From assembly GCA_973895155.1 (NCBI GenBank), contig OZ316895.1, forward strand, positions 6,158,687 to 6,222,686: 64,000 nt of DNA. The letters run 5' to 3'. Positions 145 to 40,620 of this stretch are shown here, piece by piece. The first letter of the stretch is position 1, and each line of letters begins with the position of its first letter. The translations under genes were made by a program, and so were the position numbers. The notes under the pieces were generated by a model, which saw only the letters and a program-made list of their open reading frames with translations, did not search any database and was not told where the DNA came from. This DNA comes from Marsupella aquatica. Taxonomy: Eukaryota; Plantae; Marchantiophyta.

Positions 145-310
145 AGCGTTGGAGCGTACAGGCCGCAAATTATGTGCCAGTCAACTGCGGCGGTTTTCTC
201 AAATCAAAAAATATATGTCGGGTGGTATCCCAAAACACATATACTTTTCGGTTTGAGCAAACTGCCGCCGGTGACTGGCAGAAAGTTTGCGGCCTGTACG
301 CTCCAACGCT
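145..310. repeat. Inverted repeat / fold-back (74-bp stem, 18-nt loop) derived from GDSL exon 5; candidate hairpin RNA or proto-miRNA
   Basis: 145-218 pairs with 237-310 without indels: 64 Watson-Crick pairs, 3 G:U and 7 mismatches. The outer 25 bp (agcgttggagcgtacaggccgcaaa / tttgcggcctgtacgctccaacgct) are perfect. The right arm matches 30307-30374 (gene A exon 5) at roughly 84%. Confidence 0.9.
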
Positions 311-519
311 GAAAACACAAACCATTCTGATTTTGATCTTGTCTGCGATTGAATATCGATTCCTATATAGTTTCTCGATCGATCTGGTTCTGATAGTCCA
401 TTTGCAATTTTAAGGTTCGTCAACTTTGGAACAGTAGTAATGTTCAGTACTCAGGAGAAAATGACGTTTGACGGTTTGGCAGACGGTCAGCGAAGAGCGA
501 GTGGTCTGGTGTACAAGAT

Positions 520-1435
520 CTGTTTAAGCAAACTTTTCAGATCTCTGATCCATGCTATTTGTCGGGTCTCATGCAGGTGATATCTTCCAGGTCCCCTTTC
601 TTCCTGCCTACCTTGATCCACAAACAAACGGCTCTTCATGGAGTGAACTACGGTTCAGGAGCGGCTGGCATTCTCGATGACACCGGAAATAATTTTGTAA
701 GCTCGTCGCGAAACTGCCTCGATCTCGCATGCAGTCCATCTCGGTTATGAATCGAGGATTTCCCTGCGCACTGCTGTCTTTAGTTTTAGAGCTATCTTTC
801 GAACAACATACCCACGCGCGCCATCAACAACAAACGGTTATTTGCCCCGGCCCTCGAGGTCTGGCCGCGTTTTCAGCAGAAAAGGTTGGTTCACTGATTG
901 ACTTTTGTCCGGCCTGTAGATCAAGACCGCGCCTATGGATAAGCAAATCGCTTACTTCATGCACACTTTAGACGATATCAATCACCAATTGGGAGAAAAC
1001 GAACTTAGGACGCGTGCTTGTCAGTAATCACTACTTTTCGGTAAGATATGCAACAACGACTTCATTAACAGGTACTTCATCTCAACAACAAATACCAGCA
1101 GGTTTTACACTCGTGCGGATTTTACTTCGATTCTCCTTGACAGATTCAATGCGCAGTTGTCGGTAAGCTCGTCAATAAATTTTTCAACCAGGTTCTAAGT
1201 CCTCAGGAATATCAATCGTAGGGGTAATTGATCGATTATGATTGTTGATGTACCTACGGTTAAAGGTTCGAGAACCTTAAGGCAAATACGCTTTTTAAAG
1301 TATTCCGAGCGCTCCCCGATCGAGATGCCCTTTCGTTTGAAATTGGGTTAGAGATCATAGATTCATTTACATCAGACGATTTCTTCACAGTTTGTTTTCA
1401 GGTAGAGTGCTCTTCTCTAGCTAGCAGGCAGAACA
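520..1435 (+). pseudogene. GDSL lipase pseudogene fragment, paralog of gene B: end of intron 1, exon 2 (577-696), intron 2, exon 3 (920-1162), part of intron 3
   Basis: Colinear with 34472-35365, including introns. Retains the GVNYGSGAAGILDDTG block II motif. Exon 2 is 120 nt versus 128 nt in B (frameshift). Exons 1, 4 and 5 are absent. Confidence 0.9.
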
Positions 1436-1950: not shown

Positions 1951-2109
1951 CGAGTTATATGGCCGGGTCATATGGCCGGGTTTAATTCTATCGATCGATC
2001 TCTATTAAAACCGACTTACACGTAACGAACTGGCAGTGCATTCAGTTTAGCACTTATACTAAGAAGCAGCCTCAAACACAGATATGTGACAATCAGAGAG
2101 TAGCTCAAG

Positions 2110-2310
2110 ATCATAGCCCTAGTATTCGCCTTGTAGTTCTCCAGCTAATTTTTTTCCGGGGATGACCCACTGATATCCCTGGAAAATAATCAGCAGGGGA
2201 ACTATCAGGGGGAATACTAGCAGCTTTAGGATGACGGCTATCATCTTGAGGTACTGTCGATTGCACTTCCCCGTTGTCAGCACCGCCAACACCATGAACC
2301 AAACAGACAC
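2110..2310 (-). pseudogene. Fragment of a gene A paralog exon 1 (signal peptide and start of the S/P-rich insert), frameshifted
   Basis: SVWFMVLAVLTTGKC and QDDSRHPKAASIPPDSSPADYFP lie in different frames. They match SVWFIVLVVLTTGKC..QDDSPTAASLP at 32520-32620. Confidence 0.85.
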
Positions 2311-8673: not shown

Positions 8674-9099
8674 AAATTAGGAAATTTGTTCCATTTTTAT
8701 TAATAGAAATGAAATTAAAATTGGGCAAAGTTGTTTTAAATTTTGAGGTCAGCTTGGATCTGTTAGGGTACTAAGATTTTAACAAAGTATGTCAGCATTG
8801 ATTGTAAATTTAAAAAGCACAAACCTCGGCACAAACATGATCTCAATGATAAAGTTGGCTTAGTCATCTTTGGTGCACAAGCAAGTTTTGCTTGATTGGT
8901 GGGGAATCACACTCCTACAATCCGCTTAGAGTTCTCACATGAAAGTTCAGAAGAGTTGCACACAAGGAAGTTCAAAAAGGTTGTTACTTCAAGCCAGCTA
9001 ACATATATTAATTGTAATTTTTTCATACACACATGCCTCAAGAAGCCCAAGAGGAAGCTTTGTTTGTATTCACTTCAATGCTGGTATACTTTGTTAAAA

Positions 9100-9540
9100 T
9101 CTTAGTATCAATGAAGGTCAAAGTCGGGAATAAAACAATGCAAAGCTAACCATTGATTAGTTTTCCAGAGATAGTCACAAATTGGGACACAACTGCCTTC
9201 TAAGTGGAAGAAGCTTTATTTGTGTCTTTGTGGAAGAATTTGTATTTATATTTGGACTTATCCAGTCAATGCATGGATTGCACTACTACAAATACTCTGA
9301 ATAAGTCTAACTTGATTTGAAGGTTCTTGTATGCTCTTGTTGCGTACTACAGCCTTAGGTCAAATACAAGCTTGAGGGACACCAAAAGGAATGATAGAAT
9401 TGGATACTTTGTCGATCACTATTTTGTGTTAAATAATGACATTCCAACCCATTTTCCACCGTTGATTAAGCAAAGGAACCTGGCTAGTTTGGAATCATCC
9501 AATGGTGAACATCTTGTGAGTTTCTTATAATGGGATGTTT
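9100..9540 (+). mobile_element. Decayed LTR-retrotransposon integrase relic
   Basis: Fragments FPEIVTNWDT (compare PxxIVSDRD) and GEHL..EF-YN-like sequence, spread across frames with stops. Confidence 0.35.
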
Positions 9541-10054: not shown

Positions 10055-10265
10055 TTTACAATGTTATATAATCCCTATAAGTAACCAGCAAGGGCTCTAC
10101 AAAAATATTTGAAGTTTGGGTGATTGGATATTATGCAAAACTAGCTCAATACCAATCAACCAAAACTTCCCAAATATTGTCAAATAATGTCCAATCATCC
10201 AAAACTTCAAATATTTGTATAGAGCCCTTTAATGGTTGATTATAGGGATTATATAACATTGTAAA
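10055..10265. mobile_element. Palindromic MITE-like fold-back element (~210 bp)
   Basis: tttacaatgttatataatccctataa pairs perfectly with ttatagggattatataacattgtaaa. Pairing continues inward (agggctcta..aaatatttgaagttt / aaacttcaaatattt..tagagccct). Confidence 0.8.
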
Positions 10266-12993
10266 TGGGTGATTGATATTGAGGTAGTTGTGCATAATAT
10301 CCAATCATCGTGTAGTGGGAGGAGTGTCTCGGTGGATCTGATGGCACCAAAAAAGTTTATGTTTTGATGAAGTGCTACGATTTACCCACACTCCTTCCTC
10401 ATTTTATAAAGGACAAAAGTTAAAGAAAAAAGGGGGATTTAGGGGGGGGGGAACTTGTACTGTAGTGTTTGATGATGATGATTTGGTGGAGAATAGATGT
10501 GGAGGCGTGGAATGGGGGGAAAGTTAATTGCACTCATTCACTTTGGCATGGTATGGTTAAGCAAAATGGGAGACATGCATCTATTTTGGCATGACATGAA
10601 TGCATGGACATTATCTAATTACATTAGTTCCCATTTTTGTCCCACATGTGTTCCCACATGCAAAGTATCTAGATGCTCCAATCATAAACATCCAATGGCT
10701 GAGAATTGAAGTGATACTTTTGTCCCACCTAACTCTTCACACAAGTACTCACACATGATAAGAATCTAGATGGTCCAATTACATAGATCCAATAATTAAG
10801 AATTTATGAGATGACATGGATTTTTCCCTGAATTTTCAAAATTACAAGAGTCTCTAACTAGACCCGTAAATAATACTTATGCAAAAAATCCTCAAATAAA
10901 AAGTAACCACAAAATCATGAATAAAGTTTTTTCGACTTGTGCGCCAAAGAACAAATTGCACCGCCACCAAAAAAATGATTGGACACCAAACCAAAAAAAT
11001 GCCCCATCAAGGAAACTGCACCCATGTGAACCTATAAATTTTGGGATGAGATTTTCACACAATGTACTTTATTTTTACATGCAAAAAAAAAACACCCTAG
11101 CATTTAGGGACCAATGGGGAGATAGCCAATTATTACATTTAATTATGGTTATATGTACATGGATTTCACTAGACATTGTATTGTATAGTATACATGTAGC
11201 TCTTTGGTATGGAATCAATCATGCATTATTTCTACAACAGGTTGTGGTTACTTGGGTGGTTACCTAGTTTAGGAAGGCAGATAAGCCAAGTAGCCTGACC
11301 ATTCATTTGTGTTCGGTTTATTGGCATGGATAATGTATATTGCCAAAGAATAAATAAGTGAGGTTACAATTATTGCTTGGTGAGAACAAGCAATTATTGT
11401 ATCAAAAATGTATCAATTAAATTAAAAACCCTTTGTATATTTTTTAGTAACTTAGTAAGTACCTTGCTGATTCATATTTTTGTGAAAATTAGATATTTAA
11501 ATATCTTTAGTACAGTCAAGTTTTGGTTGTAATTAGTAGCCCAATGATATTAAAACGATTAACCTTCTCTTGTTTGCATCTCTTTCTAAACATCCAACCA
11601 ATGATTCCCCAGGGTAGAGTCCAAACCATCTTCTACTCCTACTAATGTTCATAGAAGAGGATGATTTATATGAATGAAGGTGATATTGGATTTCCTTCAT
11701 CTACACTTAGTATTGAGAAATTCCTCAGTCCGACTATGGTACCACTTAGAGTGGATAAACTTGAAGTTGAAAGGTATGAAAGACTGAATTTGCAGACCTG
11801 GGGTGATGATCAAACCTGCTCTACAATTAACCATTGCAATAAGAAAAGGAAAATGAGAAGATTCCACTCATATATCCTTGGAGTTCTTAGCTAGTGGGAT
11901 CCAGAATGAGATGAGTTCATCCTTGACTCATAAGAACAATCAAGAAATTATGGTGAAGGTAGCTTTTGATGATTCAGCATGTTATAGATAAATTAACCAT
12001 AATTTGTTACATTGTGCACTTGGGGGCATTATTTCCCGCCTTGGAGAATCTCAGAGCCATTTCTGCAACTATGATAGCTCTTGGGCCATAACAACACCAC
12101 TACCCTCTAGCCCTAATACTTTCATTGACACAAAAATCCACAGAGGGTCCTTTGCTATTGATGATGAATTTTTATTTGTTGAACCTATGATGGAAGAAAA
12201 TGACAAAGTTCATAGGCAATCAAGGCCTAATTAACTTGAGTATGAGGTATTGAGATTTCATTTTGAGACATGTGATTATGTAGCAAATATCAAACTTAGA
12301 GGGAGGACGACCTACTCAGGTTCAAATTTATTTAGCTCAGTTATATTGGCATGACGGTTGTTTGTTATCATCCAAAGCTGAGGAGAGAGCACTCCTCATA
12401 GCTAAATGTTTGAACCAAAGGTTACTAATGAGACTCACTACAAAGTTGCTTGCTTCTACTAACAATTTTACTTCATTGTTAAACCTATGAAGATACCTGA
12501 GATATTAAAACATGAAGAACCAACTAGGAAACCAGATAGAGATGATGCAAGAGAGCCAAAGAGCTCATATTAAGTGCCCTATCTTTGAGGTACCATCCCC
12601 ACAATACAATCAATTTTTACAGTATCAACCACTTTGATTCTTGACTACATGATGATTCTAAAGAACCCAAATGAAGGCTAATTTACCAATGCCTCCATCT
12701 CATACATCTCTTGTACATACATAATTTGAATTCACTAGATGCTGCCATTTCTGAGGGAGATATTATTCTAGTCAAGGATCATGTTGATGTCTCCACTGAG
12801 ATTGACAAGGATATTTTAGCTCAGTTCAACTCACCAAATGTGCATGTTGATTGATGTGACACGGGTAACGTGTCACTTGACCAAACCCAGGTCGTAGATT
12901 AGGACTTATACGGTCATTAGGACCGTAGCCATAGCGTAGAATAGCACGTATAGCCGTCAGTTGCCATTATGATTAGATTAGGAGTAGGTTAAG

Positions 12994-15722
12994 ATGACCG
13001 AATAATTACGAGTTCAGGAAAGGGATTATTACGCACGACCGAGGTATGGTGGCGGCAGCGGAGTAAAAATCAGTTAGAAGAATCACGCTTGGACCGAGGC
13101 GCCGACTTCAGCTCTTTATCAATGACCGAACGGCCTGGCCTTCTCACGCTCGGGCTCATCCTGGCACCTCCATAAGAGAGGAGCCGATGGCACTGCGGGC
13201 CATTTGCTCATGTCTACCTTTTTGGAATTTGCGGACGTTGCCATCCACTCGCCTTTCTGATTGAATCAAATTGACCTTTACGAGGAGATTATCGAGGGAG
13301 AAGAGCGGATTGTGGTGAGATTTAGTCGGGACGAGCGAGGCCTCCAAGAGACCAAGGACCAGCCGGGTGGGAACGCGGACTCAACGAACCGGACTACGAG
13401 GTTAGTATGACCCTCACAGCCTTGGGATTTTGGACCTTGTTTGGCGAGGTAGGTGCTAAGTTCTCCGAGACTTACTAGTACTCTTGTCCCGAGAAAACCG
13501 CTTACAAACGAAGGTACGCGAAGCTGGTAACCAAGGTAGCACTGGTTAATTGCGAAAGGACAGCCATCACCAGGGATTCTAGCTACAACGAGCTGCGAGA
13601 CTACATCACCGAACTATATCTCAGCGAGGAAGAGCTTAGATCGGTAGCAGAGGCAATTCTTGAGGTCCAAGTGAAGTTCTTTAAGCTAAAAGGCAGCCAG
13701 CGGCTTACTCCAGCGGAGTTCGACAAGATTCCGGGGTACCTAGACCAGCAGATCGCAGCCGAAAAGCACCAAGAAGATATCAGCAGACAACGGGAAGCGG
13801 CGCGTAATCTTACGTTCCTCGGGGAAAGCTCCAACGCCTTCAACTGGGATATGGCTACCCCAATACCACCAGTGCCTCAGCCGATGACCACTGGCGTACC
13901 ACCAAGCCGGTCCCAAGTCCGTTCAGTGATCAACACTGAGTGTTCTTCGGGTTCCGAGCGAGTTAGTCCGCAACTCGAACAGCGTCCTCGTAAGCGGCCA
14001 AGGACTACGACGGCCCCAGAAGCAACAACGCGAACCAACACCGCGCCTGTACCTGCCTTGACAAACCCCCCGACCAACCAGACCCGACGACCCCCGGATA
14101 ACCTGAAGTCCAACCTGTTACAGATAATCCGCGTCCCCGAAGTAGTCTGGATCGCAATCAAGAAACTCGAGCATGCGGACTATGTTAAGGAGCATCAGTT
14201 GGAGCAGTTCGCTCACTTGCTATGGAGACCGTGCGCCGCCCCGCCGAAGGAGATTTGTGAGTTCATCTCCAATTTCAACACTGATGCGTCGACCACCAAG
14301 GTTTCGGGGCAGGCCTTATCACTCACGGAGCATCGGTTAACGCAAATCTTCTGCCTACCAACCGGGCCGGTGCCGGTTGAAATCCGAATTCGGGATAAGG
14401 AGTATACACCGCGGCACTTCAAACCCGAGGGTAAGACGGACAACGGATACAAGCAGGGGGCGTGCACCAACTTAACCTGTATGGAGTGGCTTAACTTCAT
14501 ACGGACTACCCTACACATGATTGAGCCATGATCCGAGATTTCCCTCTGCACGATCGTGCAGGTGGAACAGTACAAACGGCAAAACTGGGCCCAATTCTTC
14601 TACCAAAGATTCTCGGGGGAGCTGAAGTGGGCTCAAGGTGGTATGGCTATTGGAGGGAAGACTTACTTGGGAAGTCATATCGCCATTATCCTCGCCTGGT
14701 ACAAGGCACGGCGGGAGGCCAGAGGAAAGAATATGGCCACCTCAGCCCCGACTAATGTCACCCCCGTCGAGGAGGAGGCAACCCCAAGCACGCGGACTAC
14801 CGTCCCTCAAGAAAACCCCGAGCCGGAAGCCCCGACCAATACTCCGCCACCTCCTCCTGTGGAAATTCCGCCGCCCCCTTCCGTTGAGCCTCCGCTACCC
14901 GCGGTACAACCACCCCCAATCCCTCCACCACCTGAAGAAACCTTCCCCTCCCCAGCACTGACTACGGAGGAGCTCATTGCTCCACCCGAGGAACCACCAG
15001 TGCCCGAGAGGATGGAGGACTACCAAGTAGCCCCGGGGACCATGGCCTACGACCTGGTCCAGAAGTTTAGCCAGACTATGTCTGGGGAGCTGGCGACATA
15101 CATCGGACAACAAGTCTCGGCGTACTTTCAGCCAGCCTTCTTCATGTTAGAGCACGAACCACGGATCGTAAGCCGCTTGGAAGAAGAACTCATGGCGAAG
15201 GGGAATGAGATCGGGCGTCTCCAGATGCTGGTAGAGCACCTTGAGGAGGAGGCAACGACCCGCCGCGAGGAGTTAGTCCGCACCGTCGAACAGAGGGACG
15301 GACTAACCCAGGAGTTAAGCGGAGCGCAGACCAAACTCAAGAAGCTGGATGACACCGTGCTTCAATTACGCTCAGAATCTTCGGCTCGGGTTACCAGCCT
15401 GACCGACCTCAACAAACAATTCCTACAGGCAGCGCAGCAGGTGGCTAGTCTCTCCGCCGAACGAGATAAATTGCTAGCGCAGGACCAGGTCCATCGCGAC
15501 TCCATCGACCAGCTCAACTTGGAGGTAGCGCGGCTCCAGACCGAGGCTGATGAAGCTGCAAACGAGGCGGAGGAAGTAGTACGGGACAACAAGGCTTTGC
15601 AGGACCACGTTACCCTGCTCGTCCTCCAGCGGGGAAAACCAGGGCCCACCTCTAATCAAGGCGGCTTGAGGTCTCGCCCCGACAAGGGGACCAGCCCTGG
15701 TCCAACCACTGCACACACATAA
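12994..15722 (+). pseudogene. LTR-embedded accessory ORF, 5' LTR copy (transposon eORF-like central domain, Pro-rich region, coiled coil)
   Basis: ORFs 13671-14531 and 14556-15722 share a frame and are split only by TGA at 14529, which is CGA in the other LTR. That frame is open from 13479. A decayed N-terminal extension can be traced back to ATG 12994. Confidence 0.85.
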
Positions 15723-15980
15723 GGGGTGGTTAGCGAAGGACGAAAGTAGGCGCCGCGCGAGGCGGTTAAGTCAGCGGCATCTTTTGGTGAGGTATAACGA
15801 CAGAATAGCTATCATTAGGCACCGATTAGCGGCAGTAGGAAGAATTAGGGCCGGTCAGTTAGGATCAGCCACTGTAGGATGGAGTCCATCAACGGACTAG
15901 AGTTTGTCAGTAGGCTTGGCCGCTGCCATCCCGATCGGCACACTCGTAGTCGACGGTCAACCAGTCAGTGCAGCGCAGCC

Positions 15981-16038
15981 AGTTAGTCAGCAGGTAGTTA
16001 GTCAGTAGGTAGTATCCCGGAAGGTAGTATCCTCCGGT
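15981..16038 (+). repeat. 15-bp period repeats upstream of the LTR TATA-like box
   Basis: agttagtcagcaggt, agttagtcagtaggt, agtatcccggaaggt, agtatcctccggt. Repeated at ~25899-25956. Confidence 0.75.
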
Positions 16039-16056
16039 TCTCTTCCGCAATTGTAG

Positions 16057-16091
16057 TATTTAGGCTTCCCCTTCCGCTATGGAAGGGGGAG
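16057..16091 (+). promoter_or_regulatory. Putative LTR promoter: TATTTA followed by stem-loop ccccttcc-gctat-ggaagggg
   Basis: TATA-like motif at 16057-16062 with an adjacent hairpin, identical at 25975-26009. Promoter role is inferred, not shown. Confidence 0.45.
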
Positions 16092-16726
16092 AAGGCTTAG
16101 TTATCTCAGCAGAAGAAAGGCGAGGCACAGGGAGTCCCGGCCTGAGTAGGGTCAGAGCGCACCAAGGAGTGTCAAGAGCCAGAGTCGAGCTTGCTGGGCA
16201 AGTGCGAGGTAGGGCCTCGTAGAGACTAGGCATCGACTGCCGTTGGGCCTGCTGACCCCCTTTGAAGTCGAGTCAACCATGTAAACTGATGCTTCGCTGA
16301 GTAAATGTAGTCTTTTCCCTCTAATGTTTTTGAGAGTAACTGGTGTTGTGTGTATGCTTTGTCTGGGCAAAGGCGCCATTTTAAGGGACGTATCGGGTGC
16401 GGACTAATGGTAGGGATTGCGACTCATTGCATGTCACAAGGTCCTGTCACGTCGATGGCTTGAAAAGCCCCAAGCCGGGAGTTAGTCCGCGTCACTAACT
16501 GAGGGAATATTCCAGCGGTGGAAAACAAATATACCTATGACAAGTACGAATTATGCAAGTGTTATACCAGTAAGTATATCGGCTTAGCCTGACTTAGGGC
16601 TATTAAAGGTCACTACACACCTCCTTGCCCAAACCCTCACCCCTACTGGTGGTCGAGGTCGCACCATGACACTAAACTGGATTTAAGGCCCAGGTTAGGG
16701 GCGCGACATACGGCGACCGGTTTTTT

Positions 16727-16744
16727 TGGCGCTAGATGGAGGGG
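16727..16744 (+). other. Primer-binding site, probably tRNA-Asn
   Basis: tggcgctagatggagggg matches 17/18 the complement of the plant tRNA-Asn(GUU) 3' end as I recall it (TGGCGCTAGAAGGAGGGG). It lies 18 nt downstream of the LTR end. Confidence 0.75.
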
Positions 16745-16823
16745 GCACTCATTTTGCCTTACGAGTGGAGCCGTGTAGTGAGCTAGTAACCTTTGATTTC
16801 ATACTCGATGTGTAGGAAGGGGC

Positions 16824-19800
16824 ATGCCCCTTACCCGGTCACGTTCTGCGTATTTACAACAACCGGATGGAGCACCAAGTTTGGAAGAGAATACCGCATC
16901 CGGGAGCTCGGCTTCCGAAGCGGGATCGCGTGTTGTGATGGGTACCCAAGCACCAACGGCGGGAGGAACTCCACCGGTTCCACCAGCCCCGCAGGTACCA
17001 GGTGCGTTGCGGCCCCCTGCGGCTCAGAACGTGTCGCAGCGATCCCGGTTTCACTATCGACCCTTTAAGGGACGACCCACGGACGACCCCGATGAATGGA
17101 TAGCTGAGTTCGAGGCCACGGCCAAGGCGAATGGCGAGGAAGCCATTAAGCTAACTATCCTCCCAGGCGTGCTACGAGGAGAAGCGCGCCCGTGGTATAA
17201 CTTACAACCCCCTGGTTTCACATGGGGCCAGTTCCAAACGGCGTTCTTGCAAGAATTTTGGCCCGTGGGGATCGAATCTCGGGCCCTGTCAAAAATCGGA
17301 CGAATGCAAATGGGTAAGCATGACTCACTTCGCAAATTTCTGCAGCGGTTCCAGAAGGTTGCCGCCAAGATTCGGCCTAAGCCAGATGACTCTCTGCTGA
17401 GGAAATGGTTCATCAATGCGCTACCCCAGAGGATGGCGTTCTCGGTGCTAGAGAAGAAGACCACCACTCTACAACAAGCAATTGATAGTGCCGAATCCTT
17501 CAGGGAATCGCACTACGCCTCTCAGCTTAATAGAAGGACCAAGCATAAGAAGAGCAGGAGGTATCATACCTTTAGCAACTCCGACTCTGAATACGATGAG
17601 AAGAAAAGGAAGAAGAAACGACGACATAAGAAGAAGGGCCGGACAAGCTCTTCGTCAGACTCTGATTCAGAGTCTAGTGATTCCCTGTCCAGTAGCCCGA
17701 TGTCAACTGGCTCATCCTCCAGCGAGACCGAGTCAGAGGCTCGTAACCACCGAAGGAAGAAGGGATCACGGTCAGATACGGGTAAACATAAACCGCAAGC
17801 CAAAGTCGTCACCACGGACCAAAGGCCGCTGAGGTAGAAAAGCTGAACGAAATCACAGACCAGCTGAAGGCACTGTCGGTGCACTTGGCGGAAAAACCTC
17901 CGGACAAGAAGAAACCACCGGAAATCCGAGCGCATGCTTGGTGCTCCAAGTGTTATCAGTCGGGACATGTGGTGCAAGAATGTCTAAGATGGAACACTTG
18001 CGTGCACCAGATGGAGTTGGAGCCCGGACAGTCCGAGCCAGAGGGATGCACGATGGAGTACTTCTTCGAGGATCCAGGTGAGGCGGTGTTCCAGATGAGT
18101 ATGACGGGACCTCGCACCCTACGCGGCCACAATCCAGGGTTCCATACCCCTTATCCGTACCCAGTGAATGGGCGTGGCCCCCAGATGACCAGCAATCCAA
18201 GTATCCCACCTAAACCCGGAGTTTGGCGGACCCCGGTTTGCTATAATTGCGAGAAACCTGGTCACTTTGCCCGAGAGTGCACGGCGCAAAGGAAGCAAGG
18301 GGATGGGAGAGCGCTTCCATTGTGCCAGGTCTGTTGAACCGAAGCACATTCCACGTCAAACTGCCCCTTGGTGCTAGCCGCGAAGGCCGGCGCCGTGAGA
18401 GCTGCTCAACCTGCGGCCCCACCAACTACGGATGCAGTAGTACAAATGGTAACAATGGAATGGCAGGACGACTCCACCGAGTGGATCAACCTCATAGAAG
18501 CAGTCGAGCAAACAGGAATGCACGCGGACGACGAGTGCTATCGCGTTTCTACCCGATCATCCCGCAAGAAGGATAAGTACAAAGAACGAGCTCGGAAGGA
18601 TACCCAGCCGGAAGAGGCGGTCACGGATAAGAATAGTCCCATGGAACCAGACGAGCTGGAAGACTATCAGCGGGATAACCCGAAGTTATTCTACCCGTGA
18701 GTAGAGGAACTGGTCAAAAAGCAATTGGAAGCCTACGAGGCCCAAGAGCACGAGAAAGCCATTAAGAAGGATATTGCCGATGCTAAGGCGGCCGAAGAAG
18801 CCGAGGAAGCTGAGACTGCCTTGCAAACTGAAGGCAAGGGAGCAGAAGCATTAAAATCTGCGACCCACCGTCTAACCAATACGACATCGAAAAGGATGTC
18901 CAGAACTGTGCAGCCACAGCCACTGTCAGACAACTATTGCAGGATAACCCAAAGTATCGGCAACAACTCAAAGAGATGCTAATAGGAAAGAGGAGGCGAC
19001 GGCTACCTCGGGTAAGCACCTTAGCCGACTGTATGATGATTTACCAGGACTTAGGAGCGCCGGAAGTCTCTATCAAGATAGCAGGCTGTACTGTTCAGTT
19101 TGTACCAATAGACGGCGGGTCCGGTGTAAACATTATGACGGAGGACACTTCCGTAAGGTTGGGATATACGTCTTATCAACCCACGATGCGTGCCATTCGG
19201 TTAGCAAACAGCGCCAGGATCATGCCACTGGGGACGTTAACCAAGATATCCACGTGGATTGGAGGCCTCGAGTTTTTTCTAAATTACCTGGTGATGCGAC
19301 CAGTCTGACTCTCTTCTTATCCAGTACTGCTGGGCAGACCCTGGTTATACGGTGCCCGAGTTGTTACCGACTGGGGAAGGAAGGAATTACGATTCGGTAA
19401 CCCGACTAAGACGGTGTCCTGGAAGGAAGAAGACTATCAGGGCGAAACGCCCCAGGGACCCGAAGAATATGACTCGGAGGAGGACATCTCAGAAGAAGAG
19501 GTGAATATGGTGGAGTTAATCTCTCACCTGGATGAAGAGGAAGTCTTCGGGGTAAATGCCGTCCGAGAAGCCCATATTCTGAACCAGCCCAGACCAGCGG
19601 CCCAAATCGAAGCACCCGGGAGGCCAGAAGGAGATGATGCGGCAACGGGCGGAGCATTCCCTGGCAGGGTGAGCCCTACGAAGGCAGTTGGCCGGCTGGC
19701 CTTACCCGGTATACCCGAGGAAAACGCTACTCAGACCGCCACTCCTCCCACAAAGAAAAAGGTTACCTGGAGCCCCAAGATTCCGTCCGTAATAGAGGAA

Positions 19801-22800
19801 CCCAAGAAGCTCCCAAAGGAGCAGCCGACAGTCTGGGAACCTGTGGCCTACGATGGCACCAGACTAGAGGAATTGGAAGCTCATCTTGACCGGGCCACCA
19901 AAGACCATGTGGATGTAATCCGCAAGGAACACTATGGCAAGTACACCACAAAGAGGGAGAGAACATTCAACGTCGATTATGGCCTACGAGCGCCAGAGGA
20001 AAAGGCCATCCAAGAACTCCTATCGGAATATGAGGACGTCTTCGCATGGAGTCACCAAGACTTAACCAGGATTTCATCGGCCTATGGCGAACACGTCATC
20101 GATCTAAACTTGGGTGCTCATGCCGTCCGAGAAAGGCAACGAAGACTAAACCCAAGACATTCCATCTTGGTAAAGGAGGAGTTGGATCAACTGATCGTGG
20201 CGGACATCATCTACCCCGTCTTATCTAGCGAATGGGTGTCCCCCATTGTGGTGGTTCCTAAGAAGGTAGGGCATGATGGTAAACCCAAAATTCGAATATG
20301 CCAAGACTATCGGAAGCTCAACGACGCTACTCGGAAAGACCATTACCCGCTTCCTTACACGGACATGGTCCTTGACATGGTAGCCCGAAATGAGGTGTAC
20401 ACGTTCCTAGATGGATATTCGGGTTATAACCAGATTTGGATCAGACTATCGGACCAACTCAAAACCACATTCATAACTGAGTGGGGAACCTACGCGTTCC
20501 GGCGGATGCCCTTTGGCTTATGCAATGCCCCGGCTATGTTCCAGCGAATCATTATGAATATTTTTCATGACTTCTTACAAGAATTTTTGGAGGTGTTCAT
20601 AGACGATTTTGCCATCTTCGGAACAATCGGCCAGCACCCAGAACACCTGAGGCGGACTTTGGAGCGGTGCTGAGAAGTAGGGTTGAAATTACACCCGGGC
20701 AAATGCTTCTTTGGGGTAACGGAAGGAGTGCTACTGGGACACCGAGTGTCCAAACGGGGGATCGAGGTGGACCAGGAGAAGGTGGCCGCGTGGATGAACG
20801 TCCCTTACCCAGCGGACCAGAAGGCGGTGCGATCCTTCCTAGGCTGCGTAGGGTACTACCGACGATTCATTCAGGATTTTGCTAAAATAGCCCTACCCCT
20901 TACGGAAATGATGAAGCAAGACGCGGTCATAGCAATGACTCCCCGTCGAAAATCAGCCTTTGACGAACTAAAAAACCAGCTAACGATGGCTCTGATTCTG
21001 ACTACCCCCGATTGGAACAAGGAGTTCCATGTGTATGTCGACGTGTCTGGGTTCTGCATCGGCTCAGTCCTAAGCCAACTGGACGACGGAAAACGTGACC
21101 ACCCCATTTACTTTGCGAGCCGACAACTGTTTGCCGCAGAGAAAAACTACTCGCCCACCAATCGGGAGGCCTTGGGAATCATCTACTCGTGTAAAAAGTT
21201 TCGCCATTATCTATTGGGATATAAGGTAGTATTCCACATTGACCATGATAGCCTGAAGTACATGGTAAACAAAGCAGACTTAACGGGGAGAATAGCCCGT
21301 TGGGTCCTGCTGCTCCAAGAATTTAACTATGAAGTCAGGGTGCGACCAGGGAAAGCTCACGTAAATGCGGACTTCTTTTCGAGGATCAAAGGCGAATCGA
21401 ACAACGCATCTGTCGATGATGCATTCCCTGATGAAGAGTTATTCCGCGTAGAAACAGACCAACCAACGTGGTACGGGGACCTAATCACCTTCCTCTCGAC
21501 AGCCCGCATTCCAAGTAACATAAACCAAGAGGCCGCGTCGGTCTTTCTGCGCAAGGCTGCACCATACATGATGATCCGCGGACATCTGCATAAGGAAGGC
21601 GTCGATGGGAAGATCCGCAGATGCCTAGATTATAACGAGACGATCATTGTCATGCGAGCTATGCACGAGGAAGAGGCAGGAGGACACTTCACCCCGGTCA
21701 CCACGGCTCACAAAATCTTGGACACAGGTTATTGGTGGCCTACGCTTCATCACGACGTAACTCATTTTATCCGAGGTTGTGACTTGTGTCAGCGTGCAGG
21801 CAAACCTCGCAGGTCGGGTAATCATCCTCTTACCCCGATCTTTCCCCTTGCCCCGTTTGAGAAATGGGGCATCGATTATATCGGACCATTCACTCCTGTA
21901 ACCCGAGATCGGCGTTGCCGGTACATTCTTCTGGCTATCGACTACTCAACTAAATGGGTTGAGGCCTGGGCAACGGTCAAAGATGATGCGGCCACCACCG
22001 CTAGGTTCCTGTACAAACAGATCTTCACCCGCTTTGGACCTCCCTTGGAATTAGTCAGCGACCGCGGGACTCACTTTTTGAACGAAACGGTGGAAAAACT
22101 GACTGACCGTTACCTCGTCAAGCACAGGAAGACTACTCCTTATCATCCCAAATGTAACGGACTAGCCGAGCGGGCTAATGGCATTGTAGGGAAAATCCTC
22201 AACAAAACCGTGGCAGCCCATAAAACAGACTGGGACGACAAGCTTTTCGCGGCGGTCTATTCGTACAACTTGGCATTTAAGACTACTACAAACCATAGTC
22301 CGTATTTCTTGGTATTCGGGCAACACGCGCTAGTACCCGTCGAGTTCAAGGTCGAGACCCCGCGGGTGTGCATCCGCCCCAGACTATCGGAGGCTGGTAG
22401 TTCGTCCGATCGAGCATATAAGATCGACAGGCTAGAAGAACAGAGATTGTGGGCATCGTGACGCGTAACTGCCAAGCAAGAAGCAACGAAGAAACAGCAC
22501 GACAAGGGACTGCGCCAGGTGGACATCACCACGGGAGATCTTGTCCTTCTGTACGACAGTAGGTACATGTACTTTCTAGGAAAGTTACACACACGCTGGC
22601 AAGGACCTTTCGTTGTCCAGCAGATGTACCCGAACGGATCCTTACAGCTATCAACGTACGTCGGCGACCTCTTTCCCAATCGAGTTAGTTACGATCGTGT
22701 GAAGAGGTACTTCCACCAGGACAATGAGCGTAATGATGTTCGCGAGGACGCTTCACACTTAAGTGGGGAGCTATGTGACACGGGTAACGTGTCACTTGAC

Positions 22801-22821
22801 CGAACCCAGGTCATAGATTAG
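16824..22821 (+). pseudogene. gag-pol polyprotein (Gag, three CCHC knuckles, aspartic protease, RT, RNase H, integrase), disrupted
   Basis: Gag: DPDEWIAEFE..ARPWY. Knuckles: CSKCYQSGHVVQEC, CYNCEKPGHFAREC, CQVC*TEAHSTSNC. PR: IDGGSGVNI. RT: RICQDYRKLN, FIDD. RH: DVSG..YFASRQL. INT: GGHF..H..CDLC, WGIDYIGP, VSDRG, AERAN, GPF. Two frame changes (~17820, ~18850) and five in-frame TGA stops. Confidence 0.95.
22761..22770 (+). other. Polypurine tract
   Basis: aagtggggag lies 3 nt before the TG start of the 3' LTR. Confidence 0.75.
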
Positions 22822-25800
22822 GACTTATACGGTCATTAGGACCGTAGCCATAGCATAGAATAGCACATATAGCCGTCAGTTGCCATTATGATTAGATTAG
22901 GAGTAGGTTAAGATGACCGAATAATTACGAGTTCAGGAAAGGGATTATTACGCACGACCGAGGTACGGTGGCGGCAGCGGAGTAAAAATCAGTTAGAAGA
23001 ATCATGCTTGGACCGAGGCGCCGACTTCAGCTCTTTATCAATGACCGAATGGCCTGGCCTTCTCACGCTCGGGCTCATCCTGGCACCTCCATAAGAGAGG
23101 AGCCGATGGCACTGCGGGCCATTTGCTCATGTCTACCTTTTTGGAATTCGTGGACGTTGCCATCCACTCGCGTTTCAGATTGAATCAAATCGACCTTTAT
23201 GAGGAGATTATCGAGGGAGAAGAGTGGAATGTGGCGAGATTTAGTCGGGACGAGCGAGGCCTCCAAGAGAACAAGGACCAGCCGGGTGGGAACGCAGACT
23301 CAACGAACCGGACTAAGAGGTTAGTATGACCCTCACAGCCTTGGGATTTTGGACCTTGTTTGGCAAGGTAGGTGCTAAGTTCTCCGAGACTTACTAGTAC
23401 TCCTGTCCCGAGAAAGCCGCTTACAAACGAAGGTACGCAAAGTTGGTAACCAAGGTAGCACTGGTTAATTGCGAAAGGACAGCCATCACCAGGGATTCTA
23501 GCTACAACGAGCTGCGAGACTACATCACCGAACTATATCTCAGCGAGGAAGGGCTTAGATCGGTAGCAGAGGCAATTCTTGAGGTCCCAACGAAGTTCTT
23601 TAAGTTGAAAGGCAGCCAGCGGCTTACTCCAGCGGAGTTCGACAAGATTCCGGGGTACCTAGACCAGCAGATCGCAGCCGAAAAGCACCAAGAAGATATC
23701 AGCAGACAACGGGAAGCGGCGCGTAATCTTACGTTCCTCGGGGAAAGCTCCAACGCCTTCAACTGGGATATGGCTACCCCGATACCACCAGTGCATCAGC
23801 CGATGACCACTGGCATACCACCGAGCCGGTCCCAAGTCCGTTCAGTGATCAACACTGAGTGTTCTTCGGGTTCCGAGCGAGTTAGTCCGCAACTCGAACA
23901 GCGTCCTCGTAAGCGGCCAAGGACTACGACGGCCCCCGAAGCAACAACGCGAACCAACACCGCGCCTGCACCTGCCCCGACAAACCCCCCGACCAACCAG
24001 ACCCGACGACCCCCGGATAACCCGAAGTCCAACCTGTTACAGGTAATCCGTGTCCCCGAAGTAGTCTGGATCGCAATCAAGAAACTCGAGCATGCGGACT
24101 ATGTTAAGGAGCATCAGTTGGAGCAGTTCGCTCACTTGCTATGGAGACCGTGCGCCGCCCCGCCGAAGGAGATTTGTGAGTTCATCTCCAATTTTGACAC
24201 TGATGCGTCGACCACCAAGGTTACGGGGCAGGCCTTATCACTCACAGAGCATCGGTTAACGCAAATCTTTTGCCTACCAACCGAGCCGGTGCCGGTTGAA
24301 ATCCAAATTCGGGATAAGGAGTATACACCGCGGCACTTCAAACCCGAGGGTAAGACGGACAACGGATACAAGCAGGGGGCGTGCACCAACTTAACCTGTA
24401 TGGAGCGACTTAACTTCATACGGACTACCCTACACATGATTGAGCCACGATCCGAGATTTCCCTCTGCACGATCGTGCAGGTGGAACAGTACAAACGGCA
24501 AAACTGGGCCCAATTCTTCTACCAAAGATTCTCGGGGAGCTAAAGCGGGCTCAGGGTGGTATGGCTATTGGAGGGAAGACTTACTTGGGAAGTCATATCG
24601 CCATTATCCTCGCCTGGTACAAGGCACGGCGGGAGGCCAGAGGAAAGAATATGGCCACCTCAGCCCCGACTAATGTCACCCCCGTCGAGGAGGAGGCAAC
24701 CCCGAGCACGCGGACTACCGTCCCTCGGGCAAACCCCGAGCCGGAAGCCCCGACCAATACTCCGCCACCTCCTCCTGTGGAAATTCCGCCGCCCCCTTCC
24801 GTTGAGCCTCCGCTACCCGCGGTACAACCACCCCCAATCCCTCCACCACCTGAAGAAACCTTCCCCTCCCCAGCACTGACTACGGAGGAGCTCGTTGCTC
24901 CACCCGAGGAACCACCGGTGCCCGAGAGGATGGAGGACTACCAAGTAGCCCCGGGGACCATGGCCTACGACCTGGTCCAGAAGTTTAGCCAGACTATGTC
25001 TGGGGAGCTGGCGACATACATCGGACAACAAGTCTCGGCGTACTTTCAGCCAGCCTTCTTCATGTTAGAGCACCAACCACGGATCGTAAGCCGCTTGGAA
25101 GAAGAACTCATGGCGAAGGGGAATGAGATCGGGCGTCTCCAGATGCTGGTAGAGCACCTCGAGGAGGAGGCAACGACCCACCGCGAGGAGTTAGTCCGCA
25201 CCATCGAACAGAGGGACAGACTAACCCAGGAGTTAAGCAGAGCGCAGGCCGAACTCAAGAAGCTGGATGACACCGTGCTTCAATTACGCTCAGAATCTTC
25301 GGCTCGGGTTACCAGCCTGACCGACCTCAACAAACAATTCCTACAGGCAGCGCAGCAGGTGGCTAGTCTCTCCGCCGAACGAGATAAATTGCTAGCGCAG
25401 GACCAGGTCCATCGCGACTCCATCGACCAGCTCAACTTGGAGGTAGCGTGGCTCCAGACCGAGGCCGATGAAGCTGCAAACGAGGCGGAGGAAGCAGTAC
25501 GGGACAACAAGGCTTTGCAGGACCGCGTTACCCTGCTCGTCCTCCAGCGGGGAAAACCAGGGCCCACCTCTGATCAAGGCGGCTCGAGGTCTTGCCCCGA
25601 CAAGGGGACCAGCCCTGGTCCAACCACTGCACACACGTAAGGGGTGGTTAGCGAAGGACGAAAGCAGGCGCCGCGCGAGGCGGTTAAGTCAGCGGCATCT
25701 TTTGGTGAGGTGTAACGACAGAATAGCTGTCATTAGGCACCGATTAGCGGCAGTAGGAAGAATTAGGGCCGGTCAGTTAGGATCAGCCAACGTAGGATGG

Positions 25801-26623
25801 AGTCCATCAACGGACTAGAGTTTGTCAGTAGGCTTGGCCGCTGCCATCCCGGTCGGCACACTCGTAGTCGACGGTCAACCAGTCAGTGCAGCGCAGCCAG
25901 TTAGTCAGCAGGTAGTTAGTCAGTAGGTAGTATCCTGGAAGGTAGTATCCTCCGGTTCTCTTCCGCAATTGTAGTATTTAGGCTTCCCCTTCCGCTATGG
26001 AAGGGGGAGAAGGCTTAGTTATCTCAGCAGAAGAAAGGCGAGGCACGGGGAGTCCCGGCCTGAGTAGGGTCAGAGCGCACCAAGGAGTGAGAGCCAGAGT
26101 CGAGCTTGCTGGGCAAGTGCGAGGCAGGGCCTCGTAGAGACTGGGCATCGACTGCCGTTGGGCCTGCTGACCCCCTTTGAAGTCGAGTCAACCATGTAAA
26201 GTGATGCTTCGCTGAGTAAATGTAGTCTTTTCCCTCTAATGTTTTTGAGAGTAACTGGTGTTGTGTGTATGCTTTGTCTGGGCAAAGGCGCCATATTAAG
26301 GGACGTACCGGGTGCGGACTAATGGTAGGGATTGCCACTCATTGCATGTCACAAGGTCCTGTCACGTCGATGGCTTGAAAAGCCCCAAGCCGGGAGTTAG
26401 TCCGCATCACTAACTGAGGGAATATTCCAGCGGTGGAAAACAAATATACCTATGACAAGTACGAATTATGCAAGTGTTATACCAGTAAGTATATCGGCTT
26501 AGCCCGACTTAGGGCTATTAAAGGTCACTACACACCTCCTTGCCCAAACCCTCACCCCTACTGGTGGTCGAGGTCGCACCATGACACTAAACTGGATTTA
26601 AGGCCCAGGTTAGGGGCGCAACA
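22774..26623 (+). repeat. 3' LTR (3850 bp)
   Basis: Starts tgtgacacggg, ends gcgcaaca, followed by TSD attga. Confidence 0.96.
22913..25640 (+). pseudogene. LTR-embedded accessory ORF, 3' LTR copy
   Basis: ORFs 23443-24543 and 24561-25640 are separated by a 1-bp deletion (G4 at 24534-24537 versus G5 at 14615-14619). The protein is nearly identical to the 5' copy. Confidence 0.85.
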
Positions 26624-29705: not shown

Positions 29706-30170
29706 ATAAGATGTTGCTGTTCAACAGTTGTTTGCATGCTATCTCTCTATGTCATCCATGCACTTACTCGAGATTGAGATTGCTGATTCTTGAACTTTAT
29801 TTGAAGTACACTTGATTTAAATTACCGCCCTTCAATCAAACGCCAGTAGAATCTGAAGAACATTGGGATCTAATGCCCTTATGTAATTTCGTGTTTTACT
29901 GTGAGTTCTCTCTTAATGACGGTAGAAATCTACGTTTCTATATCATCGGACCAGAAGAGCCACATATATGAGACGCTCCACAAAGGGTGGAACGCCATTG
30001 AGAGAACTAAGTCGAAAGACGTCGTAAAACATGGTGCATGTGTATCTAACGAACCTGGACAGTAACTAATCTAGTCTGGAGAGACTCATTGTCTCAGTCT
30101 CGCCTATCAATTCTATGAAGTGGATAGAATCTAGCTTCGATCCAGAGGGCACACAATTTCTAAGAATATT

Positions 30171-32629
30171 TCATTGACGTGGTTGCGCTTTCAGAGCAAG
30201 GAGTTGCTGTACGTTCACTGGCGACACTTCTTTCAGTCCGCCAGTATACATCGCTTTCGCCAAGACTAGATTGGAAGCCTCAGTGGGGTGGTATGCATCC
30301 CAAAATACATATTCGTTTCGGTTGGAGCAAACCACCGCCGCTGGCTGGCACAAAATCTGCGCCCTGTACGCTCCCCCTCCGCAGCATCCTTCGTTGACCA
30401 CCGTAAACCCTGCAACCATATTGATTTTGACGAAGATTCGGATGCAGTCAGAATATCGCACAACCTGGACTCAATTCTTCAATCTACTCATGAGCTTGAT
30501 TCCTGACGCGGTCAACACTTCTGAAATTATGGAAACTTCAACATCTGCCACTTCGTTTTAAAACTAGCCATGACATTCACTGGGACGCTAGCTAAACATC
30601 GATGTCGCAATGCAAAAGCACTCATCCAAGTAACTAATCCAGTATACGGTGCCAGCTGCGAAAGAATTCCAGGGCGGTCAGTAATTGCAGTACTTATGTT
30701 TACACGTCACTGTAACTCCCACGACCCTGCCTAGAGGGAGAATTTGAAAAGTGCAAGTTATCAATTGTACTCACCATACTTGCTGGGATTGTTTATCAAG
30801 TTAATCAATGAAGTGTACGAGTCGCCGAGCAAATACATAGCATCTGACAATTCACTATTTAGGTCTTGAAGCATGGACAAAACCAGAGCGTTGAAATCCT
30901 GAGCCTGAGCGTTTACTGAGGACACACAGGTGGGCTGTCCAGATATGGCCAACTGATGAGGAATGCATCCAAGAGGCCCAATTCCAGACACGAAGAACAT
31001 TCGAAATCCGGAGCCGTACAATTCCTGCAGCAAATGGTCACAAATCTCGAAATGTCAGTGCGCGAGTTTACCGAGTAGATTGCACTTACGCTATTGCATT
31101 GAAGTAAGGTCACCAGTACAACCGCGGAATGCAGAAATGAGTAAATGCTAGTAATTCTTCGCCATGGTTGGCATACAGAAGTGACTGTATTCATATTGAA
31201 CAACGGATCATGTTCAGAAGGCACGAAACAGATAGTACTTCGGCTTAGCAATGGTGGATCGACCACTGCTATTAAATTCGTACCATGAGTTGCCTGCGGA
31301 AGGAGCTGATCAGCAAAACGTTGAACTGTGCGGGAGTATACTGGGTTGAAACCGAATCACCAAGCAAGTAATTGTTGATATAATCGTTGCTGCCCATGAC
31401 GATAGAAACAAGGGATGAAGCCAACAGAGTGGTAGTCGTATTCTTCCCAAGCAGCGCTTCCAGTTCAGGCAACGTGGTGTCTTGGAAGAAACTGATCTGC
31501 TGATTCATGCATATCCTATTGAGCTGCAGGTGAAAAAGGTGATTAGCTAGTTTCCGCAATCGATCTCGCTACTAGACCGATTCACAGCCGTAATTAATCT
31601 AAACTTTAGCAGAACTTAAACAGGTTCAAGTTACAGAATTCAGAGTCAAACAAGTTAGTGGACAACTCACGAAATCTGCTCCTGTCGCATCTAAGATACC
31701 GCCAGCTCCGGAGGCATAGTTGACACCACGGAGAATTCCTAAACCAGTTGTCTGTGCGTCTAGGAATGGCGGCGGATAGGGAACGCCGAGTATGTCACCT
31801 GAGCCATTTGCAATACGTACTCTTGGATCAGCCAGACTCAATATTAATTCTGACTTCCATCATACCTCTTGGATTGCATTATCGGTAGCGAAAAAAAGCG
31901 CTAAATGGGCATCTTCTGTATATCGCTAGCTAAGTTTAATTTGTTACGATTGCACATCTAAACGCCATCTCCCACAACGACAAGTGTTCTAACTACACTG
32001 ATCGACAGGGAACAGAAGACAGTGCACAGAGTAAATTGCTCACACACGAAAAATGAAGGCAGGTCCGTCAAGAAACATTGAGAATATCGATCTACAAAAT
32101 TCCTGTGAGAAAGATAACACCTACATAATATGTCAATCACGGTGCGCCCATTGCAGAATCGTCCGGTTGGTCCACCAGGGAAGTCGATGCCATTGAAGAG
32201 CATGTTTGCCTTCGCTAGAGTCTGAATGTGGTTGTTATTTCCAGAATCTACGAGTGAATCCCCAAACACAAACACAGCCGGCGGATTACTAGTACTAATA
32301 TTAGCGGGAGAGCTAGCAGCTGGAGAACTATCTCCAATTGAACTATCATCAGGAGAACTCTCAGCTGGCGATGTAACAGCAGGTGAAGCGCTGTCAGCCG
32401 CAGGAATGTCGGCTGGAGAGGTATCAGTAGCTGGAGAACTGTTATCTGGACTGCTATCTTTAGGTGAACTACCAGATGGAGAACTTGCAGGAAAAGTATC
32501 ATCTGGAGTATTGTCAGGGATATCAGTGGGAAGACTAGCGGCTGTAGGGCTATCATCTTGAGCCACTGTCTGACTGCACTTCCCGGTTGTCAGCACGACC
32601 AACACAATGAACCAAACAGACAAGCCCAT
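30171..32629 (-). CDS. GDSL esterase/lipase (SGNH), gene A, 453 aa, secreted, with S/P/D-rich N-terminal insert; exons 32629-32125, 31798-31671, 31523-31284, 31024-30775, 30409-30171
   Basis: Motifs [49 protein letters not shown] and FWDAYHPTE. All introns are GT-AG. Exons sum to 1362 nt in one open frame. Hydrophobic signal peptide. Confidence 0.95.
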
Positions 32630-32749
32630 AGATCTCAGCGAATTTGGGCAAAATGCTGCTCTCGATGGAATTCGTCGACTGATCACTTTCACAATTCGGG
32701 CCCTCGATCACAAGACCTGGAAGCCATGGCACGCAGGATCAAGCATCAG

Positions 32750-33346
32750 AACCAGAGAAAACTGTATGGTAATCGACATTCAATCCCAACAAGATCATGA
32801 TCAGAATACTGATGAAAAGTACACCTACTAGGCTTTGTAAGACACCCTGCCGATTAATGCTCGACACCAATCACATTCATCTGCTTTGTAGTGGGGATGA
32901 GGAAGCCTCTGTAGTTATCGTATTCCGTTCTGCCAAACCACCAAAAGTCATTTTCTCGTGGAGTAATGAACTTTACTACTGTTCCAAATCTCTAGCGCGC
33001 AGTCATGTGGAGTTTATCGAGCTTTAAATTGCTGATCGAGCATCCGAACCCGAGCAACTGTACAGAAATCGAAATTCAATACCAAACAAGATCAAGGCCG
33101 GAATGCTGATGAAACATACACTTGTTGGTAGACGGCGGCGGCTCCGTTGAGCTCGAGACTTGCAAGACGCCCTCCCGATTAATGCTTACAGTCACGAATC
33201 CCCTTCCTCTTGTTTGTATTGGGGATCATCTGACAAAGTCTCTGTGGTTATCGTATTTCGTTCCACCAAACGGTTCATCGTAAGTTCTCGTCGAGTCCCG
33301 AACATTAATTGTTCCAAAGTTATAGCGCGCGGCTTCAAATTGCTGA
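32750..33346. repeat. Diverged ~300-bp tandem duplication in the region between divergent genes A and B
   Basis: 32755-33035 and 33052-33346 share aactgta..aatcga.attcaat..caacaagatca, ccgattaatgct, gttatcgtatt.cgttc, tgttccaaa..tagcgcgc and aaattgctga. Confidence 0.8.
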
Positions 33347-40250: not shown

Positions 40251-40620
40251 ACTAATGGTTAGAGCCAAAATTGTTGTAGTACGACCATCATGGTGAAGTG
40301 GATCTCAAGTGGATTCACTTGTTCCCTGTCAATATGGTTAGAGCTGACAGTCTTCAATTGGCTCTACAAGGATACTAAATGAGTGAATCCACCCAATCAT
40401 TTAGTATCATGATAGAGCCAGTTGAACATTGTTGGAGCCCATGGTGGAGTAGACTCACTCATTCACTATCACTTATGGTTTGAGCCAAAATTGTTGCGGA
40501 CCATGATGAAGTGGATTCACTTGTTTGCTATCACTTATGGTTAGAGCCCAAAATGTTGCAGACCATGGTCAAGTGTGTCTTGAGTCCATTCAGTCATTTG
40601 GAACTTAAGCTAGGCCAAAA
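40250..40620. repeat. Degenerate ~60-bp tandem array (atggttagagccaaaattgttg..ccat.atg.agtggattcactt)
   Basis: Five to six diverged copies, with a related unit at ~39605-39660. Confidence 0.65.

Follow-up and report, generated by a model that had tools for sequence, protein, structure and literature searches.

GDSL genes and a scrambled pseudogene in the window

The window, which is the whole stretch of 64,000 nucleotides analysed here, contains three GDSL lipase genes (A, B and C) and a hairpin-forming fold-back close to its first nucleotide (Table 1). The Pfam domain PF00657 was matched by 7 of the 9 pieces scanned, one of them above the curated cut-off. The sole match of gene A exon 3 among 187 candidates was a protein of the leafy liverwort Calypogeia fissa (78%), and in C. 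fissa, P0001 corresponds to gene A and P0016 to gene B. A leafy liverwort is therefore the likely source of the window. A Ser/Pro/Asp-rich linker of about 90 residues, encoded at 32300–32560 between the signal peptide and the GDSL domain of gene A, is common to C. fissa P0001. Between genes A and B there is an old direct duplication (32737–33330, 67% identity), part of which was moved beside the hairpin. A retrotransposon was found at 12854–26623, with two direct repeats of 3.85 kb (97.5% identical) that each contain ORFs of 350–398 aa. Its gag-pol is interrupted by in-frame stops, and from its RT-RNase H-integrase order we take it to be Ty3/Gypsy-like. Further inverted repeats were located at 40347–40432 (a 39-bp fold-back with an 8-nt loop), 10055–10307 (a nested MITE-like set), and 8769–9107 and 59373–60942 (two TIR-like pairs); none of them contained matches to GDSL exons.

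Table 1. Positions of the genes, pseudogene blocks and hairpin parts in the window.
Feature	Position	Strand	Remarks
Gene A 3′ UTR copy (of 29870–29973)	1–145	−	Downstream of the hairpin on the minus strand; 40/47 and 48/57 identical
5′ arm of hairpin	145–218	+	Pseudogene exon 5, inverted; has the sense of GDSL mRNA on plus and is antisense to it on minus
Hypervariable patch of 5′ arm	171–189	+	Partner 266–284; 8/8 well-supported 5′-arm W-type changes
Loop	219–236	.	18 nt; exon-5 continuation (VFWD), 4-nt loss relative to gene A; short microhomology at fold-back point
3′ arm of hairpin	237–310	+	Pseudogene exon 5 in original orientation; antisense to gene A mRNA on plus
Upper register	246–270	+	Best in window allele (21-mers starting 246–250, score 3.0); invariant in W-type; 5–8 in D-type
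Lower register	275–299	+	About 15 bp above stem base; score 2.0 against gene A in D-type, 5.0 in window
3′-arm end	305–310		Non-exon; appears derived from junction with inserted upstream piece
A/B intergenic pieces	323–521	.	323–483 inverted (32929–33105); 484–521 original orientation (33449–33486)
Gene B exons 2–3 with introns, pseudogene copy	522–1428	+	Frameshift, stop
Gene A exon 4 end, intron 4, exon 5 start (GFTVVNEGCCG)	1656–1950	−	Exon-5 part split from hairpin arm
Second fold-back, gene A exon 1	~2078–2274	.	z −5.4; 0/200 shuffles as good
Gene A exon 1 start, copy	2203–2313	−	93/105 identical
Gene A	30171–32629	−	5-exon GDSL lipase, apparently intact; sole gene predicted as a target (site region 30307–30374)
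Gene B	34143–36039	+	5-exon GDSL lipase, apparently intact; arranged head-to-head with A and source of the copy at 522–1428; not a predicted target
Gene C	45081–46915	+	Apparently intact 5-exon GDSL lipase, third in window; not a predicted target

Our analysis showed that the hairpin does not stand by itself: a scrambled pseudogene copy of the gene A/B pair, which occupies 2.3 kb (1–2313) and lies about 30 kb from that pair, contains it together with a second fold-back, likewise derived from an exon. The blocks of the copy follow in the order gene A 3′ UTR, inverted exon 5, exon 5, inverted upstream piece, intergenic piece, gene B exons 2–3, start of gene A exon 5 to end of exon 4, exon-1 fold-back, and gene A exon 1, and the exon 5 piece in original orientation is at 217–304. 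Two stretches of gene A, 29974–30282 and about 30676–32500, are missing from the copy, each replaced by a fold-back. The second fold-back comes from the signal-peptide and Ser/Pro-linker part of gene A exon 1, and its arms, which align with a 15-nt gap, are alike at 70 of 84 positions (83% outside gaps). Many variants were seen inside it, at 2150–2200, in the sequencing runs X1–X4 described below. Compared with gene B itself, the gene B copy had 16, 15 and 19 differences at the three codon positions, with 26 non-synonymous and 5 synonymous codons. This even spread over codon positions indicates that the copy has been dead since about its origin.

At the loop junction the exon extends slightly beyond YVFWD, by a few bases, before reversing at a microhomology of 2–3 bases, and at the stem-base junction the sequence returns to the 3′ UTR at another short match. 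When read by hand, both arms had about seven common differences from gene A, mostly non-synonymous, and both carried a 6-nt piece at the stem foot, apparently from the junction with the inserted upstream piece. These shared differences and the shared piece indicate that the copy was already about 10% decayed and broken when the fold-back arose. A closer intact parent gene was rejected as a necessary assumption because the shared arm differences are of this pseudogene-like kind. A hand reading of 303–328, where the 3′ arm has its foot, also suggested a micro-inversion of about 15 nt within the inverted upstream piece.

Fold-back (snap-back) inverted duplication with deletion and rearrangement by multiple template switches are known mechanisms. 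This locus resembles their products in that a short loop, at a microhomology, links the template to its inverted copy, which takes the place of a deleted stretch, and in that several switches fall within a few kb. Snap-back template switching likely made both the scrambled copy and its fold-back. It accounts for the origin of the hairpin only, not for the clustering of later changes described below.

Structure of the hairpin and its predicted target

An inverted-repeat search of the 64-kb window gave an arm complementarity of 86% over 74 nt each. The two arms of the fold-back (145–310, 166 nt) pair as an ungapped stem of 74 bp, with 64 Watson-Crick pairs, 3 G:U pairs and 7 mismatches on the plus strand and 64, 2 and 8, respectively, on the minus strand. 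The predicted fold of 145–310 had an energy of −111.3 kcal/mol and an MFEI of −1.36. The wider region 100–350 also folded strongly, at −125.3 kcal/mol (z −12.8) on the plus and −124.7 kcal/mol (z −13.5) on the minus strand, and none of 200 shuffles on either strand equalled it. The 166-nt hairpin with its ungapped 74-bp stem, as described in the initial annotation, was thus confirmed both by the pair count and by a z of about −13 on both strands. Among all 200-nt plus-strand windows in the 64 kb, the hairpin was the most stable and the fold-back at 2078–2274 the second most stable. Pairing begins sharply at 145/310 on both strands, and a perfect run of 25 bp at the stem base is not unusual (p 0.13).

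When translated, both arms gave the GAYRxQxxCQ..SN..Y part of GDSL exon 5, which the 3′ arm and loop extend to YVFWD. The identity to gene A exon 5 was 57/68 (84%, against 30307–30374) for the 3′ arm and 54/68 (79%) for the 5′ arm. The translations and the 68-nt match of each arm support the origin of the arms from GDSL exon 5 by inverted duplication that had been proposed, and the match of 57/68 agrees with the earlier statement that the 3′ arm of a plus-strand transcript is antisense to gene A mRNA at about 84%. A MITE-derived hairpin was rejected, the arms being coding exon and their sole matches in the window being GDSL exon 5. An assembly artefact was rejected as well, as one contig of run X2 spans 114–345 and the derived letters of the window at 172 and 186 recur in X4.

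The MIRNA criteria of Axtell and Meyers 2018 (bioRxiv 10.1101/213314) include a precursor of ≤300 nt with ≤5 mismatches and ≤3 asymmetric bulged nt, together with sequenced miR and miR*, 75% precision and two libraries. The hairpin, at 166 nt, is within the length limit, and all 108 of its 21-nt registers in the window allele had 0–5 mismatches (G:U counted apart) and no bulge, so its geometry is compatible with that of plant pre-miRNAs, as had been noted. The structure fits, but the small-RNA criteria are the defining ones, and the locus is therefore not to be filed as a MIRNA. A search of the 64 kb against Rfam gave no match at gathering score, i.e. no known miRNA family; the best of seven sub-threshold matches was structure-driven and reached 35.6 bits, against 83 needed.

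We scanned 54 plus-strand 21-mers of the 3′ arm and 54 minus-strand 21-mers of the antisense arm against genes A, B and C. A mismatch counted 1 and a G:U pair 0.5, doubled at positions 2–13. The score limit of 4 was taken from Fahlgren 2007 (PMC1790633). The best score against gene A was 3.0, which is within this limit, and it was reached by 5 of the 54 plus-strand 21-mers (starts 246–250) and 1 of the 54 minus-strand ones (start 171). Genes B and C scored 8.0 or worse for all 108, so that the suggested regulation of a lipase cluster is not supported; among the three window genes, only gene A appears to be a plausible target. When the 11 observed arm differences were placed at random, the best score was ≤3 in 99.5% of trials (p 0.995). 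Since chance alone gives it so often, the score of 3.0 has no value as evidence.

Identity to gene A is 84% and 79% in the arms, compared with 82–94% for nine other parts of the pseudogene. Being no closer than the rest of the pseudogene, the arms give no sign that the match to gene A has been kept, which counts against the reading of the hairpin as a proto-MIRNA. No 21-nt register scored ≤3 in both of the allelic lineages described below. By the criterion of a miR824-type fate, a guide region should be better conserved than the rest of the arm, and this was not so either with the target or between alleles. The initial annotation had suggested a young miRNA or hairpin-RNA locus. The chance-level score, the arms no closer than the pseudogene and the lack of a register kept in both lineages make a precise, selected miRNA less likely, while a proto-MIRNA or a source of hairpin siRNAs is still a possible reading.

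Plus-strand transcription had been taken as a condition of targeting, but either strand supplies an antisense arm; the pseudogene itself reads in the minus direction, which leads on into the retained 3′ UTR. A palindromic TATATA at 364–369, about 55 nt from the stem base, has no counterpart upstream of gene A, and the density of this motif window-wide is 0.5 per kb; it may be a weak lead for a minus-strand start. Together with the intergenic pieces at 323–521 and the retained 3′ UTR at 1–145, the TATATA at 364 could serve as a hint of a promoter or of transcription.

Alleles of the hairpin and a variable patch in its stem

The allele data were contigs of sequencing runs, none on record as RNA. 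Five runs cover part of 1–2400; X1–X4 were compared over 1–2700 and X2–X5 over 120–335. The hairpin was present in all four runs X2–X5, which come from three studies. Its alleles belong to two lineages about 9% apart, the W-type (close to the window) and the D-type. The D-type differed from the window by 12 letters and 2 gaps in 156 nt, identically in X3 and X4 and nearly so in X5, with three of the changes within 246–251. In the flank at 325–510 it differed by 9 letters and 4 gaps in 190, so that the hairpin is no better conserved than its flank. Watson-Crick pairs were kept at 63–66 of 74 positions in both lineages (D-type counted without indels). This still-paired stem indicates that the fold-back predates the split between W-type and D-type.

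The X2 allele differed from the window at 171, 172, 174 and 186, the main contig of X3 at 172, 173, 178, 179 and 186, and that of X4 at 189. Short contigs added changes at 271, 276 and 285 and an 8-nt loss at 298–305; among the pieces listed, these are probably from W-type copies, judging from depth sums. The 3′ arm is thus not invariant. The 8-nt loss, which removes part of the basal stem in one X3 copy and was also seen in X1, counts against the proto-MIRNA reading. Pairs are disrupted by the majority of the changes, and hardly any compensatory changes were seen. No substitution was found at 145–164 among those listed.

In X2 the hairpin contig had a depth of 53, beside two flank contigs of about 22–29 each, one of which is 10–12% diverged at 1970–2313. 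These depths may reflect two diverged copies of the locus sharing one identical hairpin by conversion, although contig depth cannot settle copy number. The depth ratio of W-type to D-type hairpins was about 4:1 in X3 and X4 and 1:1 in X5, for which local amplification, polyploidy or mixed samples are possible causes. A metagenome scan with a 20-nt basal motif gave one match, an arm-less hit in a contig of 53% GC, which was dismissed as chance.

Across the four W-type alleles, all eight well-supported changes of the 5′ arm fell within 19 of its 74 nt (p 1e-4), a pattern that was noticed before testing and in a sample of four alleles only. With neighbouring changes merged to six events the clustering had a p of 0.003, and in pair coordinates for both arms, 12 of 13 changes lay in one 20-bp window (scan p 4e-5). 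Changes at 165, 170 and 182, seen only in an X5 contig of depth 3.7, were left out of these tests. The patch differed from the window at 4/19 positions in X2, versus 21/1754 in the flanks, and at 5/19 in X3, versus 10/651 (flank rates of 1.2–1.5%); in the main allele of X4 it differed at 1/19, versus 15/1135 (p 0.22). These flank rates refer to W-type-looking pieces only, which are 5/8 (X2), 2/8 (X3) and 5/8 (X4) of the pieces listed. With all eight listed pieces the X3 flank rate would be about 6%, and 5/19 would have a p of about 0.006 by a hand estimate. The changes in the patch are of many kinds, and the opposite arm was not copied. Among changes polarised by hand, neither a strand bias in wobble-type changes (8 versus 6, p 0.79) nor an asymmetry between arms (7 versus 4, p 0.55) was significant. 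The invariance of 190–270 in the W-type is expected from the low flank rate (P 0.29–0.38 per run). A mutation hot spot at the DNA level is a possible cause of the patch.

In plants, base-to-loop processing makes its cut about 15 bp above the stem base, as described in PMC3787264. The patch overlaps the duplex that a cut placed by this rule would give, and also the best ancestral match to gene A. In its register, the D-type scored 2.0 against gene A on either strand (indels ignored), and the W-type 5.0 on the plus and mostly 4–7 on the minus strand. Conservation of the lower stem has been described for young MIRNAs (bioRxiv 10.1101/129684).

Possible explanations and related systems

We propose that the hairpin is a proto-MIRNA or a source of hairpin siRNAs directed against gene A, with a central stem that is being eroded, and we put the probability of this reading at about 0.45. 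The exon-5 fold-back would have arisen inside an already decayed and broken A/B duplicate, likely via template switching. It would be transcribed on either strand, with the minus transcript running into the retained 3′ UTR, and a cut by DCL1 or DCL4, some 15 bp up from the sharp stem base, would free 21-nt RNAs from about 160–180/275–297, which are predicted to silence gene A only. The lower register would have matched gene A well in the ancestor, as it may still do in the D-type (score 2.0), while each W-type allele would have gained its own changes in the patch, loosening the stem and weakening the match.

It is also quite possible that the hairpin is an inert relic, the scar of a multi-step template switch that is silent or without effect and is drifting, its patch being a hot spot or chance. 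Within 2.3 kb there are an inversion, an insertion and two deletion breakpoints that each bear a fold-back, and the two fold-backs, with arm identities of 86% and 83%, are similarly old. The divergence of the arms from gene A at the pseudogene's rate, the D-type hairpin as variable as its flank (12+2/156 versus 9+4/190) and the breaking of pairs by most changes agree with drift, and drift followed by death is the commonest fate of such loci in the account of Fahlgren 2007 (PMC1790633). However, the changes are strongly clustered rather than scattered, they are probably unlike the templated kind expected from hairpin repair, and the stem still has 63–66 of 74 Watson-Crick pairs in both lineages. 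A silent hairpin would be an ordinary scar of rearrangement; the locus is set above one by the clustering of its allelic changes and by its allele series.

A true young MIRNA is unlikely. It would give a precise duplex, with a 21-mer from the plus-strand 3′ arm starting at 246–250 (5′ U at 246–248) and cutting gene A mRNA at about 30316–30340. The score of 3.0 comprises one mismatch and two 3′ wobbles, the duplex has 1–2 mismatches and 2 G:U pairs, and the register 246–270 is invariant in the four W-type alleles, but such a score arises by chance, and the flank rate predicts the invariance. The terminal region of 38–42 nt is near the value of about 42 nt given for short loop-to-base precursors in PMC3787264, and a loose zone (170–174/281–285) lies about 15 bp below the register, but this fit to processing rules was made after the fact. 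Moreover, the D-type, with its three changes at 246–251, scores 5–8 there, and the hairpin belongs to no Rfam family.

We also regard as improbable a proto-microRNA under diversifying selection, in which separate alleles would in parallel have acquired changes in one and the same guide-forming patch of 19 nt, so that silencing of the parent lipase is retuned or disarmed. If this were true, bryophytes would have their own version of the conflict between a hairpin and a GDSL gene known from teosinte, probably one that works without DCL2, and the two lineages would keep different good registers (246–270 and 275–299).

In the teosinte conflict, Pollen Drive, the large hairpin RNA Tpd1 is directed against the GDSL lipase Tdr1 and gives DCL2-dependent 22-nt siRNAs, and cleavage and drive have been shown (PMC11390486). 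Judged by its target, it is the nearest case to this locus. The authors likened the Tpd1 products to a proto-microRNA (PMC11390486). Common to this system and the locus described here is a non-coding hairpin with complementarity to a GDSL lipase gene that lies on its own chromosome; the locus differs in its stem of 74 bp, in being known from sequence alone, and in falling outside the pattern of a long hairpin with DCL2-made 22-nt siRNAs. That it is itself a Tpd1-like selfish element, whose hairpin RNAs would silence a GDSL lipase that spores or gametes require and whose patch would record an arms race, is very improbable: the target family is the same, change is accelerated and allele-specific in the guide-capable zone, and the contig depths (W:D about 4:1 in X3 and X4, 1:1 in X5) hint at several copies per sample, but the Tpd1 hairpin is much longer than 74 bp, the model liverwort Marchantia is stated to be without DCL2 (PMC11799827), the changes move away from the gene A match, and depth is not copy number.

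PMC4788410, a paper on the miRNAs and degradome of Marchantia, does not use the words GDSL or lipase in its main text; its supplements could list such targets. A literature search outside subscription journals and supplements found no small-RNA study of a leafy liverwort, the matches listed concerning Marchantia, and no listed title or opening of an abstract pointed to this locus. Most miRNAs of liverworts are specific to their lineage.

Returning to the proposed proto-MIRNA or hairpin-siRNA source, the closest known systems are young MIRNA and siRNA loci that arose by inverted duplication of target genes, the class of MIR161, MIR163, MIR824 and MIR846 described in Fahlgren 2007 (PMC1790633), where Allen 2004 is also cited. 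As in that class, the similarity of both arms to a single protein-coding family extends far past a 21-nt site (68 nt each here), the fold-back is shorter than 300 nt with scattered mismatches, and flanks from the gene of origin are retained. Unlike in that class, the match to the gene is no better in any one part of the arms than elsewhere in them, variability is raised rather than lowered in the putative duplex zone, and the fold-back, known from DNA alone, arose inside a dead, multiply rearranged duplicate with a second exon-derived fold-back. The birth of MIRNAs from target fragments is already established in flowering plants. Here the parent gene, apparently intact, lies 30 kb away, the fold-back is datable within the decay of a pseudogene, and natural alleles differ exactly in the predicted duplex, which makes testable whether the mismatches that turn a perfect stem miRNA-like come from drift or are selected.
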